A program made the translations under genes and the position numbers. A stretch of DNA of 64,000 bases, from sequence record PV946933.1. One strand, 5' to 3'. Position 1 is the stretch's first letter, and every line of letters starts with the position of its first letter. Below are positions 4,004-39,321 of the stretch, one piece after another. The DNA comes from a phage. Below the pieces are notes generated by a model. It saw only the letters and a program-made list of their open reading frames with translations, was not told where the DNA came from and ran no database searches.

Positions 4004-4066
4004 GGAAAATATGTCAGTAGTAATTAATAATGTCAATGCAGTAATTAAATCTTTAGTTAATAAAAA

Positions 4067-4900
4067 ATGATGAATGAATGGACTGTATTTCGTCGTGGAG
4101 AGCCAGATAAATTTTTTCATAGATTTAACCCAACTTTGGATTTGAATGTTATTGACAGAGATGTTCATGCCGAAATTTTAGATAAGTTTAAAGTTGATAT
4201 TGGCTTTGGATTAGAAAAACATTTACAGCGAACAAGCGGATCTGGAATGAGTTTATCTAATCGCATTATGAAAGCCCTTAATAAAATTGGAGCGTTGTCT
4301 CGCATTAATGCGAGTGAAATCCTTCGTAATTATAATAAAGGATATGACCTTTATGGTCGACTAATGCCGAAGTTATCATTTGACCAAATGATTGCAGATT
4401 TGTGGGAAAATCAGCGACGATTATTAGCATTAGGCGCTCGATTAGCTAAAGGTCTAGATAAACAAATGATTTTTAAGACCAATAATACAGAAGACCTTAA
4501 ATGCTTTAAATTTAGTATTCGTGGAGATGATTATTACATCAGAGCTCACTCTACAGATTATGTTAATATGGGGCATCATCTCTGTTTAGCTTTTGAAGTT
4601 TTAAAAGAAGCTGGAACGTTAGAATATTCATCTGGTGCTAAATGCCCGATTGGTTCAAATTGTATTTTGATTTATCGCCCGGATGAATCCAGTTCAACTA
4701 AATTGCCTACGAAACCTGTACCAGTTCGTAGTAATGAAAAACATTCTGAACAAATTGATTATTTTAATAAGCAAATTGAAGAGCTGAATATTTCTATTCA
4801 ACAGTATGACGATGAAATTTTCAGACTATCTGGATTGAGTAGTAAAGCTAAATCTGAGCGTGAAAAGTTAATTAAAATTGTTGATTTACTTAAATCTTAA
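4067..4900 (+). CDS. hypothetical protein with C-terminal coiled coil
   Basis: 277-aa ORF, tightly packed with neighbours. Confidence 0.5.
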   Translation: MMNEWTVFRRGEPDKFFHRFNPTLDLNVIDRDVHAEILDKFKVDIGFGLEKHLQRTSGSGMSLSNRIMKALNKIGALSRINASEILRNYNKGYDLYGRLMPKLSFDQMIADLWENQRRLLALGARLAKGLDKQMIFKTNNTEDLKCFKFSIRGDDYYIRAHSTDYVNMGHHLCLAFEVLKEAGTLEYSSGAKCPIGSNCILIYRPDESSSTKLPTKPVPVRSNEKHSEQIDYFNKQIEELNISIQQYDDEIFRLSGLSSKAKSEREKLIKIVDLLKS

Positions 4901-17192: not shown

Positions 17193-18395
17193 ATGAAAGT
17201 ATGTATTTTTATGGCTCGAGGTCTTGAAGGTTGCGGTGTAACTAAATTTTCTCTTGAGCAGCGTGATTGGTTTATTAAAAATGGTCATGAAGTAACTTTG
17301 GTTTATGCTAAAGATAAATCATTTACTCGTAATTGCGCGCATGATTATAAATCATTTTCAATTCCGGTTTTATTGGCAAAAGAATACGATAAAACGCTTA
17401 AGCTGGTAAATGATTGTGATATTCTAGTTATCAATTCAGTTCCTGCTACTTCAGTCGAAGAAGACACAATTAATAACTATAAAAAAATTATTGATAACAT
17501 TAAACCTTCGGTTCGTGTTGTAGTTTATCAGCATGACCATTCTTCTCTTTCTTTGCGTCGAAATTTGGGATTAGAAGAAACTGTTCGTCGAGCTGATGTT
17601 ATTTTTAGCCATTCTGATAATGGTGACTTTAATAAAGTTTTGATGAAAGAATGGTATCCGGAAACTGTTTCTCTGTTTGATGATATTGAAGAAGCACCGA
17701 CCGTATATAACTTTCAGCCTCCTATGGATATTGCGAAGGTTCGATCAACCTACTGGAAAGATGTTTCTGAAATTAACATGAATATCAACCGTTGGATTGG
17801 TCGTACTACTACATGGAAAGGCTTTTATCAGATGTTTGATTTTCATGAAAAACATCTTAAACCTGCAGGACTAAGTACTATTATGGAAGGTCTGGAACGT
17901 TCTCCAGCGTTCATTCCTATTAAAGAAAAAGGAATTCCATACGAGTATTATCGTCTTCATCAAGTAGACCAAATTAAAATTGCTCCTAATTTGCCGACGC
18001 AAATTCTTGACCGTTATGTAAATAGCGAAATGCTTGAACGCATGAGTAAATCCGGATTTGGTTATCAGCTGAGTAAGTTGGACAAAAAATATCTACAGCG
18101 TTCTTTAGAATACACTCATCTCGAGCTTGGTGCATGTGGAACAATTCCAGTATTTTGGAAATCTACTGGCGAAAATTTAAAATTCCGTGTTGATAATACT
18201 CCATTAATTTCACACGATAGCGGTATCGTTTGGTTTGATGAAAATGACATGGAATCAACATTTGAACGTATTAAAGAACTGTCATCTGACCGAGCTCTTT
18301 ATGATCGCGAACGCGAAAAAGCTTATGAATTTTTGTATCAGCATCAAGATTCAAGCTTCTGCTTTAAAGAACAGTTTGACATTATTACAAAATAA
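17193..18395 (+). CDS. agt: DNA alpha-glucosyltransferase
   Basis: 400 aa; recognised as T4 alpha-gt; GAGGA upstream. Confidence 0.9.
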   Translation: MKVCIFMARGLEGCGVTKFSLEQRDWFIKNGHEVTLVYAKDKSFTRNCAHDYKSFSIPVLLAKEYDKTLKLVNDCDILVINSVPATSVEEDTINNYKKIIDNIKPSVRVVVYQHDHSSLSLRRNLGLEETVRRADVIFSHSDNGDFNKVLMKEWYPETVSLFDDIEEAPTVYNFQPPMDIAKVRSTYWKDVSEINMNINRWIGRTTTWKGFYQMFDFHEKHLKPAGLSTIMEGLERSPAFIPIKEKGIPYEYYRLHQVDQIKIAPNLPTQILDRYVNSEMLERMSKSGFGYQLSKLDKKYLQRSLEYTHLELGACGTIPVFWKSTGENLKFRVDNTPLISHDSGIVWFDENDMESTFERIKELSSDRALYDREREKAYEFLYQHQDSSFCFKEQFDIITK

Positions 18396-35202: not shown

Positions 35203-35214
35203 TTAGAGGTTAAT

Positions 35215-35571
35215 ATGTATAGTTCTGAATTTTCATATTTAAAAATGGAAAAAATTTCATACGATTTTATAGATGAAAAGGTTTATTACAGCTTCCATGA
35301 ACCGCGTTTTAATAGTGAGGTTGGGTTTATTGTAGTAAAAGACAATTTCATTTTAAAAATATATTCGGCATTAAAGGATTTTCACTACGAAAATATTAAC
35401 CTAAAATTTGATAAAGAAAACGTTCGTAATTGCGCAGTAACAATTACAGGAAATAAAGATACATGCGTTATGCTATCTGATGAAATTAATGATTTGCTAA
35501 ATAATGCAGAAAAGATTACCGTTCCATCGATTGATGACCAAATTTTTAACGCTTTTATGAATAGAGGTTAA
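35215..35571 (+). CDS. hypothetical protein
   Basis: 118-aa ORF. Confidence 0.45.
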   Translation: MYSSEFSYLKMEKISYDFIDEKVYYSFHEPRFNSEVGFIVVKDNFILKIYSALKDFHYENINLKFDKENVRNCAVTITGNKDTCVMLSDEINDLLNNAEKITVPSIDDQIFNAFMNRG

Positions 35572-35739: not shown

Positions 35740-36768
35740 ATGTCATCGATACCTTGGATTGATAATGAGTTTGCATACCGTGCATTAGCTCATTTACCTA
35801 AATTCACACAAGTAAATAATAGTTCAACTTTTAAATTACGGTTTAGATGCCCTGTTTGTGGAGATTCAAAAACCGACCAAAATAAAGCCCGTGGATGGTA
35901 TTACGGTGATAATAATGAAGGAAATATTCATTGCTATAACTGTAACTATCATGCACCAATCGGAATATATTTAAAGGAGTTTGAACCTGATTTATATCGT
36001 GAGTATATCTTTGAAATAAGAAAAGAAAAAGGTAAAAGTCGTCCAGTAGAAAAACCTAAAGAACTTCCTAAACAACCCGAGAAAAAAATAATTAAATCTC
36101 TTCCGTCATGCATTAGATTAGATAAACTGGCGGAAGACCATCCAATTATAAAATACGTAAAAGCTCGTTGTATTCCAAAGGATAAATGGAAATATCTTTG
36201 GTTTACAACCGAATGGCCTAAATTAGTTAATAGCATAGCGCCAGGAACATATAAAAAGGAAATACCTGAGCCTCGTCTTGTTATTCCAATTTATAATGCT
36301 AATGGAAAAGCTGAGTCTTTTCAAGGACGCGCATTAAAGAAAGATGCTCCCCAAAAATATATCACCATCAAAGCTTATCCTGAGGCAACAAAAATTTATG
36401 GTGTTGAACGAGTTAAAGATGGTGATGTATATGTTCTAGAAGGACCTATAGATTCACTTTTTATTGAAAATGGTATAGCTATTACGGGTGGTCAATTAGA
36501 CCTAGAAATTGTTCCATTTAAAGATAGACGTGTATGGGTTTTAGATAATGAACCTCGTCATCCTGATACTATTAAACGAATGACTAAATTAGTTGACGCA
36601 GGAGAAAGGGTTATGTTTTGGGATAAATCTCCCTGGAAATCAAAAGATGTTAATGATATGATTAGAAAGGAAGGTGCAACCCCTGAACAAATTATGGAAT
36701 ATATGAAAAATAATATTGCCCAAGGGTTGATGGCTAAAATGCGGCTATCTAAATATGCTAAGATTTAA
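35740..36768 (+). CDS. 61: DNA primase gp61
   Basis: 342 aa; N-terminal zinc ribbon CPVCGDS...CYNCNYH; recognised as T4 gp61. Confidence 0.93.
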   Translation: MSSIPWIDNEFAYRALAHLPKFTQVNNSSTFKLRFRCPVCGDSKTDQNKARGWYYGDNNEGNIHCYNCNYHAPIGIYLKEFEPDLYREYIFEIRKEKGKSRPVEKPKELPKQPEKKIIKSLPSCIRLDKLAEDHPIIKYVKARCIPKDKWKYLWFTTEWPKLVNSIAPGTYKKEIPEPRLVIPIYNANGKAESFQGRALKKDAPQKYITIKAYPEATKIYGVERVKDGDVYVLEGPIDSLFIENGIAITGGQLDLEIVPFKDRRVWVLDNEPRHPDTIKRMTKLVDAGERVMFWDKSPWKSKDVNDMIRKEGATPEQIMEYMKNNIAQGLMAKMRLSKYAKI

Positions 36769-36965
36769 ATTAATCCAACTAAAGCAAATGCTAAATCTAC
36801 GAATGTATCGAGAGTAATTACTGGAATACTAACGCCATGAGCAATAGCAATTGGCGATAAAATAAAGTTCCATAGTAAAATTCCTATCATAGCAGAAATA
36901 GTAAAAGCTATACGTTTTTTATTACCTTTTATGGCATTAACAAGTGCCATTAATTTTTGTACCAT
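36765..36965 (-). CDS. small two-helix membrane protein on opposite strand
   Basis: 66 aa; AAAGGAGGA 6 nt upstream of ATG on - strand; ATAAATAT late-promoter-like box upstream; tail-to-tail with gene 61. Confidence 0.45.
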   Translation of the reverse strand: MVQKLMALVNAIKGNKKRIAFTISAMIGILLWNFILSPIAIAHGVSIPVITLDTFVDLAFALVGLI

Positions 36966-36987
36966 GCGTCGTCCTCCTTTAAATTAA

Positions 36988-36995
36988 ATATTTAT
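36988..36995 (-). promoter_or_regulatory. late-promoter-like box for the opposite-strand small membrane gene
   Basis: ATAAATAT on - strand ~13 nt before AAAGGAGGA and ATG; same arrangement as upstream of holin t. Confidence 0.35.
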
Positions 36996-37014
36996 CGCAA
37001 ATTTTACAAAATTT

Positions 37015-37061
37015 GTTTACTTTCTCAGCTTGCTGTGGTATTATAAAATAAACTGCTGAGG
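37015..37061 (+). promoter_or_regulatory. early promoter with SD-pairing inverted repeat
   Basis: GTTTAC-N18-TGTGGTATTAT; TCTCAGC (37023-37029) complementary to GCTGAGG (37055-37061) at the SD. Confidence 0.55.
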
Positions 37062-37069
37062 ATAATATA

Positions 37070-37507
37070 ATGATTAATAAAATTGTACATGAAATGGCTT
37101 TAAACGGAGATTCATATAAAATATCTGCCGTAGTTGAAAATTTCATACTTAATAAAGTAAAAGAATATTTCACTGATTGTTCAGTTAGTTATCAAGAAAA
37201 AATGGTTTTAATCGACGATACTGAAAAATCAAATAATTTGTTTTGTTCGAATTTTACAACTAAGAAGCGTACTAGAAGATTTGATATTGTCATTTCTCGC
37301 AATGGTAAAAAGCATATAATTGAAATCAAACACCAAGTTGGTGGAGGTACAGCCATTGATTCGGTTGGAATATATCTGGAAGATAAAGATAAATTAAAAG
37401 AATACACAAAAACTGAAAATCCTGTGTCATTGATGATATTAGATTTTTTGCCATGCGGATATTATCCGCGTAATAAGTGGACAAAAAGAGAATCATTTAC
37501 TGATTGA
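37070..37507 (+). CDS. putative PD-(D/E)xK-fold nuclease-like protein
   Basis: 145 aa; helix with Glu (AVVENF) followed by RRFDIVISRNGKKHIIEIK (D-x13-E-x-K); own early promoter; directly upstream of dam. Confidence 0.5.
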   Translation: MINKIVHEMALNGDSYKISAVVENFILNKVKEYFTDCSVSYQEKMVLIDDTEKSNNLFCSNFTTKKRTRRFDIVISRNGKKHIIEIKHQVGGGTAIDSVGIYLEDKDKLKEYTKTENPVSLMILDFLPCGYYPRNKWTKRESFTD

Positions 37508-37624
37508 TAATCCAACCATCCAAGCAAGGTTTAATGAATATGCTAAATCACAAAACGTGTTAGTATTACTATCAAATACATATGATGAAGAATTATATAA
37601 TTCGTTTTTTGCTGCAATAAATGA

Positions 37625-38413
<789 letters not shown>

Positions 38414-38473
38414 CTGCTTATATATTCAAATGATATAATTATTTAACTTATTAATGAATTGAAAGGAAAAATA

Positions 38474-38992
38474 ATGGCTTACTTTAACGAATGTTCACAA
38501 TTGATCGAAGGCGCTGATAAAGCTCAAAATGAATACTGGGATATTCTCGGTGATGAAAAAGACCCTCTGCAGGTTATGCTTGATATGCAGAAATCTCTGC
38601 AAGTTCGTTTAGCTAAAGATAAACCTGAATATAACCGTCATCCTGATGATTTGGCTACCGCAGGTGAAGTTGTTGATTGGCTGCGTAATCAGAAAGATTA
38701 TATTGACGATGAATTCCGTGAACTTCTAACTTCTCTTGGCGGTATGAGCAATGGCGAAAAAGATGCATCTGCTGTATGGAAGCCTTGGAAAGCTCAACAT
38801 GGTGAACGCCGTGAAACTCTAATTACTGATTTGTCTCCACAAGACCAGTTGGAAATTAAATTCGAAATGATCGATATTCTTCATTTCGTTCTGAACATGT
38901 TCCAAGGTCTTGGTCTTACGGCTGAAGAAATCTTTAAACTTTATTATCTGAAAAATGCTGAAAACTTCGCTCGTCAAGACCGAGGTTATTAA
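38474..38992 (+). CDS. 56: dCTPase/dUTPase gp56
   Basis: 172 aa from MAYFNEC; recognised as T4 gp56; track ORF starts at TTG. Confidence 0.9.
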   Translation: MAYFNECSQLIEGADKAQNEYWDILGDEKDPLQVMLDMQKSLQVRLAKDKPEYNRHPDDLATAGEVVDWLRNQKDYIDDEFRELLTSLGGMSNGEKDASAVWKPWKAQHGERRETLITDLSPQDQLEIKFEMIDILHFVLNMFQGLGLTAEEIFKLYYLKNAENFARQDRGY

Positions 38993-39037
38993 TAGCTCGT
39001 TTATTTAAACGACGACTTAAAAGCCGCGAGAATTTAT

Positions 39038-39045
39038 TATAAATA
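39038..39045 (+). promoter_or_regulatory. late promoter (soc)
   Basis: exact TATAAATA 30 nt upstream of soc ATG. Confidence 0.5.
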
Positions 39046-39075
39046 ATCATGTAATTTAAATAAAAGGAGAATTAC

Positions 39076-39321
39076 ATGGCTAGTACTCGCGGTTATGTTA
39101 ATATCAAAACGTTTGAGCAGAAATTAGATGGAAATAAGAAAATTGAAGGAAAGGAAATTTCTGTAGCTTTCCCTCTTTATTCTGACGTTCACAAAATTTC
39201 TGGCGCTCATTACCAGACATTCCCTTCAGAAAAAGCAGCATATACTACTGTATATGAAGAAAATCAACGTGCTGCGTGGATTGCTGCAAACGAAGATTTG
39301 TGGAAAGTAACTGGCGGTTAA
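39076..39321 (+). CDS. soc: small outer capsid protein Soc
   Basis: 81 aa; recognised as T4 Soc; TATAAATA late promoter 30 nt upstream; terminator downstream. Confidence 0.85.
   Translation: MASTRGYVNIKTFEQKLDGNKKIEGKEISVAFPLYSDVHKISGAHYQTFPSEKAAYTTVYEENQRAAWIAANEDLWKVTGG

Follow-up and report, generated by a model that had tools for sequence, protein, structure and literature searches.

A putative restriction-modification-like cassette of a nuclease gene and dam in Tequatrovirus, with the nuclease gene frameshifted

The locus described here lies between the primase gene 61 and the adenine methyltransferase gene dam in a 64,000-nucleotide stretch of phage DNA (sequence record PV946933.1; hereafter the window). 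Its plus-strand open reading frame (ORF) is probably, though far from certainly, an inactivated copy of a 186-residue Type II restriction-endonuclease-like enzyme that together with dam makes up an optional restriction-modification-like cassette circulating among T4-like phages. Direct support comes from the fold, the conserved catalytic residues, the synteny with Dam, the mobility of the unit and the asymmetric decay of its two genes; it is a further prediction that the intact nuclease would cut DNA, recognize the Dam site and be blocked by its methylation. The comparisons also suggest that T4 retains, in its Dam, one half of a former restriction-modification unit. The region is that of a Tequatrovirus, closest to phages DCP2 and vB_EcoM-G28 (hereafter G28) at 99.4–99.5% identity over 1.7 kb, and the plus strand of the window corresponds to the minus strand of T4. 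The genes follow one another in the order primase gene 61, a 66-residue ORF, a 145-residue ORF, dam and gene 56, with 865 bp between the end of the primase gene (36768) and the start of dam (37634) (Table 1).

Table 1. Features of the gene 61–dam–gene 56 locus in the window
Feature	Coordinates	Strand	Basis
Primase gene 61	35740–36768	+	
Conserved 66-residue small membrane protein, not in the cassette	36765–36965	−	phrog_2024, E 1.2e-30
Shine-Dalgarno sequence AAAGGAGGA (+ strand 36972–36980) and late-promoter-like box ATAAATAT (+ strand 36988–36995) of the 66-residue gene	36972–36995	−	
Optional cassette of 1.44 kb: promoter, restriction-endonuclease-like gene (broken here) and dam	36976–38414	+	RB68 comparison
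Putative nuclease-gene promoter, T4-early/sigma-70-like: TTTACT-17-TATTAT with TG; GTTTAC at 37015–37020	37016–37044	+	Consensus scan
Inverted repeat, 8-bp arms 37022–37029 and 37055–37062; the 3′ arm covers the GAGGA Shine-Dalgarno sequence	37022–37062	+	RNA fold
Truncated 145-residue allele of the 186-residue PD-(D/E)xK gene; keeps E23, D72, E85, K87 and GGTAIDSV	37070–37507	+	
Private 4-bp tandem duplication TGATTGAT; frameshift, TGA stop at 37505–37507	37501–37508	+	G28 alignment
Out-of-frame 3′ remainder of the nuclease gene (ancestral codons 146–186); ancestral TAA overlaps the dam ATG (ATAATG)	37509–37634	+	
dam, D12-class GATC N6-adenine DNA methyltransferase, intact	37634–38413	+	Pfam PF02086, E 1e-50
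Gene 56	38459–38992		

The initial annotation of the window, made from the sequence alone, had described the plus-strand ORF as a 145-residue protein with the core pattern of a PD-(D/E)xK nuclease. The ORF and its three segments AVVENF, RRFDIVIS and HIIEIK are all present, and it is the length of the product that did not hold. Across the nuclease gene and its flanks, the aligned sequences of the window and G28 are identical except for a tandem duplication of TGAT in the window. Without the duplication, the ORF encodes 186 residues and ends in a TAA that overlaps the ATG of dam, as in G28, and the PHROG family profile phrog_8706 is likewise 186 positions long. None of the 140 phage records that hold this stretch carries the duplication. 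By these comparisons, the 145-residue ORF is a frameshift-truncated allele and not a native gene, and the duplication arose as a private mutation unless it reflects an error of assembly. Programmed frameshifting at this position was considered and rejected because the duplication is absent from every other genome. The part removed is a helix-strand-helix segment (residues 147–185) that is modelled with confidence and contains nearly invariant residues; in the AlphaFold2 model, it comprises helix 147–160, strand 163–167 and helix 172–185, with a predicted local distance difference test score (pLDDT) of 80–97. Because this conserved C-terminal α-β-α element is lost, the locus would now function as dam alone, and the nuclease gene of the window is, as read from the alignment, a pseudogene.

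The fold of the nuclease was examined in an AlphaFold2 model built from an eight-sequence alignment (pLDDT 84, predicted template modelling score 0.81). The model comprises an α-β-β-β-α-β core followed by an additional α-β-α. The top Foldseek matches in the PDB are all PD-(D/E)xK nucleases, the best being MunI (template modelling score 0.61), a fold similarity that is significant, and the sole match in a viral structure library is an uncharacterised homologue from phage MX01. As is typical of PD-(D/E)xK enzymes, the core carries an acidic residue on β2 and a (D/E)xK motif on β3, both conserved throughout the family: D72 is located in strand 66–77 and E85-x-K87 in strand 80–88, with E23 on helix 1. 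These are exactly the catalytic residues proposed in the initial annotation, and they are invariant in a 10-sequence alignment reaching down to 27% identity, together with H88, Q89, G93-T-A-I-D-S98, P118, S120 and D125. The structure search proposed there as a check thus returned a restriction-endonuclease-like fold, so that the alternative outcome, no such fold, did not arise. A resolvase-type role, also suggested, finds no favour in the top structural matches, which are Type II (IIP) restriction enzymes and defence nucleases.

Conservation of the active site also bears on whether the protein cuts at all. A nuclease-fold protein without cleavage activity, serving as a DNA-binding regulator or an accessory subunit of Dam or persisting as a functionless, decaying passenger, would fit the repeated loss of the gene without visible harm (T4, KarlGJung, G29 and this window) and the outcome of a literature search that found no phenotype described. 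The E, D and ExK set is invariant across relatives that are 27–63% identical, and the ratio of nonsynonymous to synonymous substitution rates (dN/dS) of the nuclease gene within Tequatrovirus is 0.04–0.08, indicating strong purifying selection similar to that on dam (0.03–0.08). This pattern is the opposite of that expected for a decaying or non-catalytic protein, and we consider such a protein very improbable.

By its model, the nuclease adopts a Type IIP fold of the MunI/EcoRI class, and at the sequence level it constitutes a new family with a borderline DpnII signal. Pfam matches are all weak (DpnII, E 0.003–0.005; BanI, E 0.003–0.005; HSDR_N, E 0.006–0.02), and the PADLOC profile REase_II matches with E 7e-5, reaching E 5.3e-6. 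Of the 10 members, 4 have DpnII (PF04556) as their highest-ranking named family, aligned over profile positions 143/158 to 232/233 of 278; the best score, 22.5 bits for P0009 (E 8.3e-5), falls short of the gathering threshold of 23 bits, and the three others score 16.5–19 bits. The link to DpnII comes from the Pfam and PADLOC scores only. It is a coherent lead because the DpnII system combines a nuclease that cleaves GATC in its unmethylated state with a Dam-family methylase, DpnM. An NCBIfam scan of the nuclease gave nothing relevant.

Similarities to the MunI/EcoRI-type IIP enzymes, which are α-class PD-(D/E)xK nucleases that cut to leave 4-nt 5′ overhangs, are seen in size (186 residues in the phage nuclease compared with 197–200 in MunI chains) and in the spacing of D...ExK. 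In a relaxed alignment with EcoRI, whose sequence was verified against 1ckq, D72 pairs with D91, E85-I-K87-H-Q with E111-A-K113-H-Q and G-T-A-I-D-S with G-N-A-I-E-R, a correspondence that is not significant and serves as a lead only. The EcoRI Pfam family PF02963 gives no match at E ≤ 10. Kinship with the EcoRI family on the strength of the shared ExKHQ and GxAI(D/E)x motifs was rejected since the comparison by hhalign is not significant. The “inner arm” insertion of EcoRI is absent from the phage nuclease, and the positions of EcoRI N141 and R145 are occupied by T94 and S98, so that recognition of AATT is not expected.

The nuclease family is tiny, confined to phages and without a Pfam or NCBIfam model. 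It forms 10 clusters among 5.8 billion proteins. An exhaustive hidden Markov model search of 1.84 billion representatives returned 11 matches, of which the nine with E ≤ 1e-10 are the family or fragments of it; the remaining two, with the poorest scores (E 1.4e-6 and 1.8e-4), are proteins of 765 and 4741 residues matched over short stretches. Two loci were found in IMG/VR and three in JGI metagenomes. No member occurs in 185,579 bacterial and archaeal species genomes, and a tblastn search of plasmids with P0013 gave no match. Firmicute loci encoding Dam homologues contained, in five of five inspected, AlwI- or FokI-type IIS enzymes or methylases only, with no DpnII-type enzyme. The nearest plasmid-borne relatives of T4-type Dam that were inspected (38–42% identical, on Firmicute plasmids L012–L015) are AlwI-family or FokI-like IIS methylases or methylase domains.

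The distribution of the locus was followed in 504 Tequatrovirus records matching the primase end. The full cassette is present in 146 of them (about 30%), and about 42 have a T4-type junction with dam only. In the remaining ~300 (~60%), of which RB68 is an example, the 66-residue ORF leads straight to gene 56 with neither nuclease nor dam. The homology of RB68 to the window ends at 36975 and resumes at 38415, and by this comparison nuclease and dam together form an optional 1.44-kb unit spanning 36976–38414.

Every relative of the nuclease that can be placed on DNA abuts or overlaps a D12-class (PF02086) methylase, with the nuclease first. The sample comprises eight pairs, that is, seven distinct lineages and the window copy, and four further viral or metagenome loci (Table 2). 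In the seven intact pairs, the gaps between stop and start are −1, −1, 0, −4, −7, −35 and −20 nt. At least three genome contexts are represented, and divergence runs in parallel in the two proteins: identities to the reference pair of 63, 57, 50, 41, 32 and 30% for the nuclease correspond to 70, 72, 63, 61, 55 and 54% for the methylase. The partner methylases retain the FSNMIR..PFGKR hairpin, which in structures of T4 Dam by Horton et al. reportedly makes the contacts to GATC. As in Type II systems, the endonuclease lies beside a methyltransferase and is inherited with it. A functional link to Dam, raised as a possibility in the initial annotation, gains support from this adjacency in every lineage, its persistence in at least three contexts and the parallel divergence.

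Table 2. Genomic settings of the nuclease (R) and methylase (M) genes
Carrier or locus	Nuclease identity to G28	Gene order
G28	reference	primase, 66-residue ORF, R, M, gene 56
L007	63%	R, M behind gene-56 fragment
L008–10	57%	R, M
L011	50%	R, M
Klebsiella Jiaodavirus phages	41–44%	denB, R, M, ... ndd, near rIIB and topoisomerase
L005	32%	R, M
L006	30%	R, M, then rIIA
Four further viral or metagenome loci	98% or 44%	R, M

In locus L007, a 93-residue fragment (4010–4291) corresponding to the C-terminal half of a gene-56-type nucleoside triphosphate pyrophosphohydrolase (phrog_4856) is located between the 66-residue ORF and the nuclease gene. This fragment suggests that the rearrangement which brought the cassette there also copied a portion of gene 56.

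About 30% of Tequatroviruses carry the cassette, as an optional block flanked by conserved genes. The same pattern would result from a free-standing homing-type endonuclease of the seg/mob kind that cuts cassette-less relatives near the 61/56 junction and drives gene conversion in mixed infections; dam would then be co-converted cargo or would protect the target site of the carrier itself. T-even phages are known for such elements, and segF of T4 is two genes away. Homing endonucleases keep a fixed insertion site, whereas the sites of this pair differ in Tequatrovirus, Jiaodavirus, L006 and L007. In the three or more unrelated contexts in which the pair is inserted, the nuclease stays beside Dam and its putative recognition motif GTAIDS does not vary. 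A homing enzyme specific for one site should shift its target and would have no need of a methylase, and the best structural matches of the nuclease are Type IIP restriction enzymes. A homing endonuclease is therefore an improbable identity for this protein, and a restriction-modification-like pairing of the nuclease with Dam is preferred.

The pattern of decay is also that of a restriction-modification system. The initial annotation did not associate the two genes of the interval with this position in T4, a view that the T4 sequence corrects. The dam–61 interval of T4 is 309 bp long with no gene annotated, and it holds an intact copy of the 66-residue ORF plus the last ~27 codons of the 186-codon nuclease gene. 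By alignment, T4 is a deletion derivative, and the window is not an insertion relative to T4: a deletion of ~550 bp, equivalent to window positions 37002–37550 and with CAAA microhomology at its junction, took out the promoter and codons 1 to ~159 and left the part equivalent to 37551 onward. The comparison of the 61–dam interval called for in the initial annotation thus has a divided outcome, in that the nuclease is indeed absent from T4 apart from the stub and the 66-residue gene is an ordinary, conserved gene that T4 also carries. The T4 Dam is 97.7% identical to that of the window and occupies the same genomic place.

The “orphan” Dam of T4 is accordingly one whose partner was lost by deletion, while T2 and about 150 other phages retain the nuclease gene. 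The T2 product has 181 residues and a slightly different C terminus (L018 1501–2046); the allele ends in ...YNSFLLQ* (* denoting the stop) and leaves a 13-nt gap before dam, unlike the 186-residue ending. Because the T4 stub (L002 3140–3202) shares the T2 ending, the T4 deletion arose on a T2-like allele. The measured difference between the T2 and T4 intervals is 537 bp. We take it to correspond to the 536-bp insert 5′ of T2 dam that Miner and Hattman (J Bacteriol 1988) are said to have described without assigning it a function.

Two further inactivated copies were observed. In KarlGJung, an N-terminal deletion removes the catalytic core of the nuclease, and in G29 the gene is frameshifted in an A-run; dam is intact in both. 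With T4 and this window, there are at least four independent inactivations of the nuclease gene with dam intact, and among about 155 carriers no genome has the nuclease without dam. As in Type II restriction-modification systems, the methylase survives alone and the endonuclease does not. The chance that four of four inactivations would strike the nuclease gene is ~0.03 if they were random over 561 bp of nuclease gene and 780 bp of dam, a value obtained by simple arithmetic that is weak because of the small numbers and the possible independent benefits of Dam. The window locus appears to represent an earlier stage of the same decay that gave the T4 “orphan” Dam.

In the proposed mechanism, the intact nuclease would be made early from its own promoter, and dam would be translated next by way of the overlapping stop and start codons. 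The nuclease, probably a homodimer, would use D72, E85, K87 and E23 with Mg2+ to cut double-stranded DNA at the methylation site of Dam, which is most likely GATC itself or a sequence containing it, and only when the adenine is unmethylated. Hints that nuclease and methylase would share a recognition sequence are indirect: the sub-threshold similarity to DpnII and the invariance of both the GTAIDS motif of the nuclease and the target-recognition hairpin of Dam. The DNA of the carrier phage would be shielded by Dam and by hydroxymethylcytosine (hmC). Likely targets would be under-methylated foreign DNA in the infected cell, such as plasmids and co-infecting phages, including the ~60% of Tequatroviruses that are dam-less, a majority that would also serve as substrate if the enzyme tolerates hmC. 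The cassette would act as a selfish insertion-deletion unit as well.

GATC is the most under-represented of the 256 tetranucleotides in the window, with 62 sites against ~209 expected (observed/expected ratio 0.30). The same depletion is seen in Dam-less RB68 (positions 1–50000; ratio 0.29). In each of the related T4-like loci checked (L003, L004, L006, L007 and L008; ratios 0.08–0.36), GATC is the most or second most under-represented tetranucleotide. The depletion was rejected as evidence for the specificity of the nuclease because it does not discriminate.

Several points weigh against a restriction-modification-like cassette with GATC specificity. Every GATC of T-even DNA already contains glucosyl-hmC, and the enterobacterial hosts are Dam+, which leaves Dam without a clear protective role and the nuclease without an obvious substrate. 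The depletion of GATC is not attributable to the cassette alone because it is equally strong in phages without it. The nuclease cannot be assigned to the DpnII family, as its scores are below threshold, cover the core only and are lacking for 6 of the 10 members; moreover, ~150 N-terminal positions of the DpnII profile have no counterpart in the phage protein. Neither the 186-residue protein nor the 10-sequence profile matches any sequence in the PDB, and hhalign comparison with EcoRI and a 119-sequence EcoRI alignment gives a probability of 0.2–0.5%, which is not significant. The gene order differs from that of DpnII, MboI and LlaDCHI, with nuclease then methylase behind an early promoter in the phages and M-(M)-R in the DpnII system. 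The observation that the nuclease never occurs without the methylase is in part trivial because the two genes are adjacent and share ancestry. Finally, catalysis, specificity and methylation sensitivity are putative properties, predicted from sequence and model.

The Dam+ state of the hosts would be accommodated more readily by a nuclease directed to methylated or hemimethylated GATC, similar to DpnI or MutH. In such a scheme, Dam would mark the cytosine-containing DNA of the host and the nuclease would cut or nick it, for host-DNA breakdown or for the start of recombination-dependent replication, while hmC shields the phage genome. With Dam+ hosts, as is established, only a methyl-requiring enzyme has an abundant host substrate, the Jiaodavirus cassette directly follows denB, a host-DNA nuclease gene, and linkage to Dam would follow just as well. 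Among named families, however, the sequence signal points only to DpnII, which is methylation-sensitive, and not to DpnI or MutH. Host Dam would moreover suffice for such an enzyme, so that it is harder to explain why phage dam is strictly kept and why the nuclease, rather than the methylase, is lost repeatedly. We regard a methyl-directed nuclease as unlikely.

For the preferred restriction-modification-like cassette, known systems offer partial parallels. Similar to the phage cassette, DpnII and MboI are partnered by a Dam-family GATC methylase. Chlorovirus R.CviAI/M.CviAI, which act on GATC, and EcoP1I of phage P1 are virus-borne nucleases with cognate methylases, as is the pair proposed here. 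Those systems have demonstrated activity and known roles, such as host DNA degradation or prophage defence, whereas the phage cassette is predicted from its sequence; in addition, the present cassette resides in a virulent phage that already shields its DNA with hmC and infects Dam+ hosts. Neither the nuclease gene nor a restriction-modification cassette of T-even phages was described in the literature covered by a full-text search. The GenBank record of phage Shinka labels the nuclease “putative restriction endonuclease”, so the fold has not escaped annotators. What appears to be new is an endonuclease sequence family in a Type II restriction-modification-like module, a member of neither the DpnII nor the EcoRI family.

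The Dam proteins of T2 and T4 have been studied for decades as model methyltransferases. To our knowledge, the reason for a Dam in a phage with hypermodified DNA has never been settled. With dam as the second gene after a restriction-enzyme-fold gene, the cassette offers a concrete and testable hypothesis for the origin of T4 Dam, and the nuclease, at 186 residues, may be a minimal sequence-specific endonuclease. A more far-reaching proposal, which we hold to be improbable, is that glucosyl-hmC does not stop the intact nuclease from cutting unmethylated GATC in dam-less T-even co-infectors, with double-strand-break repair copying the cassette and its flanking markers into the victim. If this were true, the cassette would be a homing-like restriction-modification unit, responsible for marker exclusion among T-even phages and in part for the extreme avoidance of GATC seen throughout the group, and T4 Dam would be its fossil. 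For the window itself, the consequence is plainer: its nuclease copy is a pseudogene and the neighbouring membrane ORF an ordinary gene.

Upstream of the nuclease gene, the initial annotation had proposed an early promoter and an inverted repeat masking the Shine-Dalgarno sequence. A promoter-like site and the repeat are present, and neither is strong. The promoter is a sequence-level assignment, in a region in which the count of promoter-consensus matches is not above that in shuffled sequences, and the hairpin folds only modestly better than shuffles, with an energy of −10.1 kcal/mol (z −1.82) that 11 of 200 shuffled sequences equal. Because the 5′ arm of the repeat is positioned between the −35 and −10 elements, the full hairpin would form on read-through transcripts only. 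The deletion in T4 takes out the promoter-like site at 37016–37044. A TATAAT-like (−10-like) element is located ahead of dam, inside the 3′ end of the nuclease gene, and the same element is found in T4.

The 66-residue minus-strand gene was found as first described, with its Shine-Dalgarno sequence and late-promoter-like box upstream, and the suggestion that it belongs with the nuclease gene to one inserted system is not sustained. It is arranged tail-to-tail with the primase gene, which it overlaps by 4 nt, and it is present in all three states of the locus (full cassette, dam only and neither). A total of 693 phage records contain the gene, those of T4, T2 and RB68 among them, always tail-to-tail with primase, and relatives of ~50% identity are found in, for example, Shigella phage JK45 and Escherichia phage PhAPEC2. 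The T4 copy (17738–17938; L002 3239–3439 (+)) is intact and identical at 61 of 66 residues. It is without annotation in the T4 RefSeq record NC_000866; most relatives have it annotated as a hypothetical protein, and in the T2 record it bears the remark “similar to RB69ORF029w; RB32030w”. The protein contains one clear hydrophobic, transmembrane span (residues 19–42) and, at the C terminus, another hydrophobic stretch that includes two Asp residues; the dN/dS of the gene is 0.08–0.30.

The late-type layout noted in the initial annotation as matching that upstream of holin t is conserved across relatives. In six of seven lineages (window, T4, T2, IME537, RB68 and L007), ATAAATA is positioned 21–23 nt upstream of the ATG. 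The full late-promoter consensus TATAAATA, which in T4 is found about 6–13 nt ahead of the transcription start, is present in L007, and the window matches it at seven of eight positions (gATAAATA); the 7-mer ATAAATA occurs only seven times on both strands of the 64-kb window. The gene, which is conserved and independent of the cassette, encodes an ordinary small membrane protein that is probably expressed late.

Two differences from relatives were observed on either side of the locus. At 35204–35526, the homology of the window to G28 breaks off, and directly after spackle the window has an ORF of 118 residues (35215–35571), 113 of which are identical in RB68_035; G28 and T4 carry gene 61.2 at this place. 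At 38992–39076, between gene 56 and soc, the homing-endonuclease gene segF is absent from the window, unlike in T4 and as in G28 and RB68.

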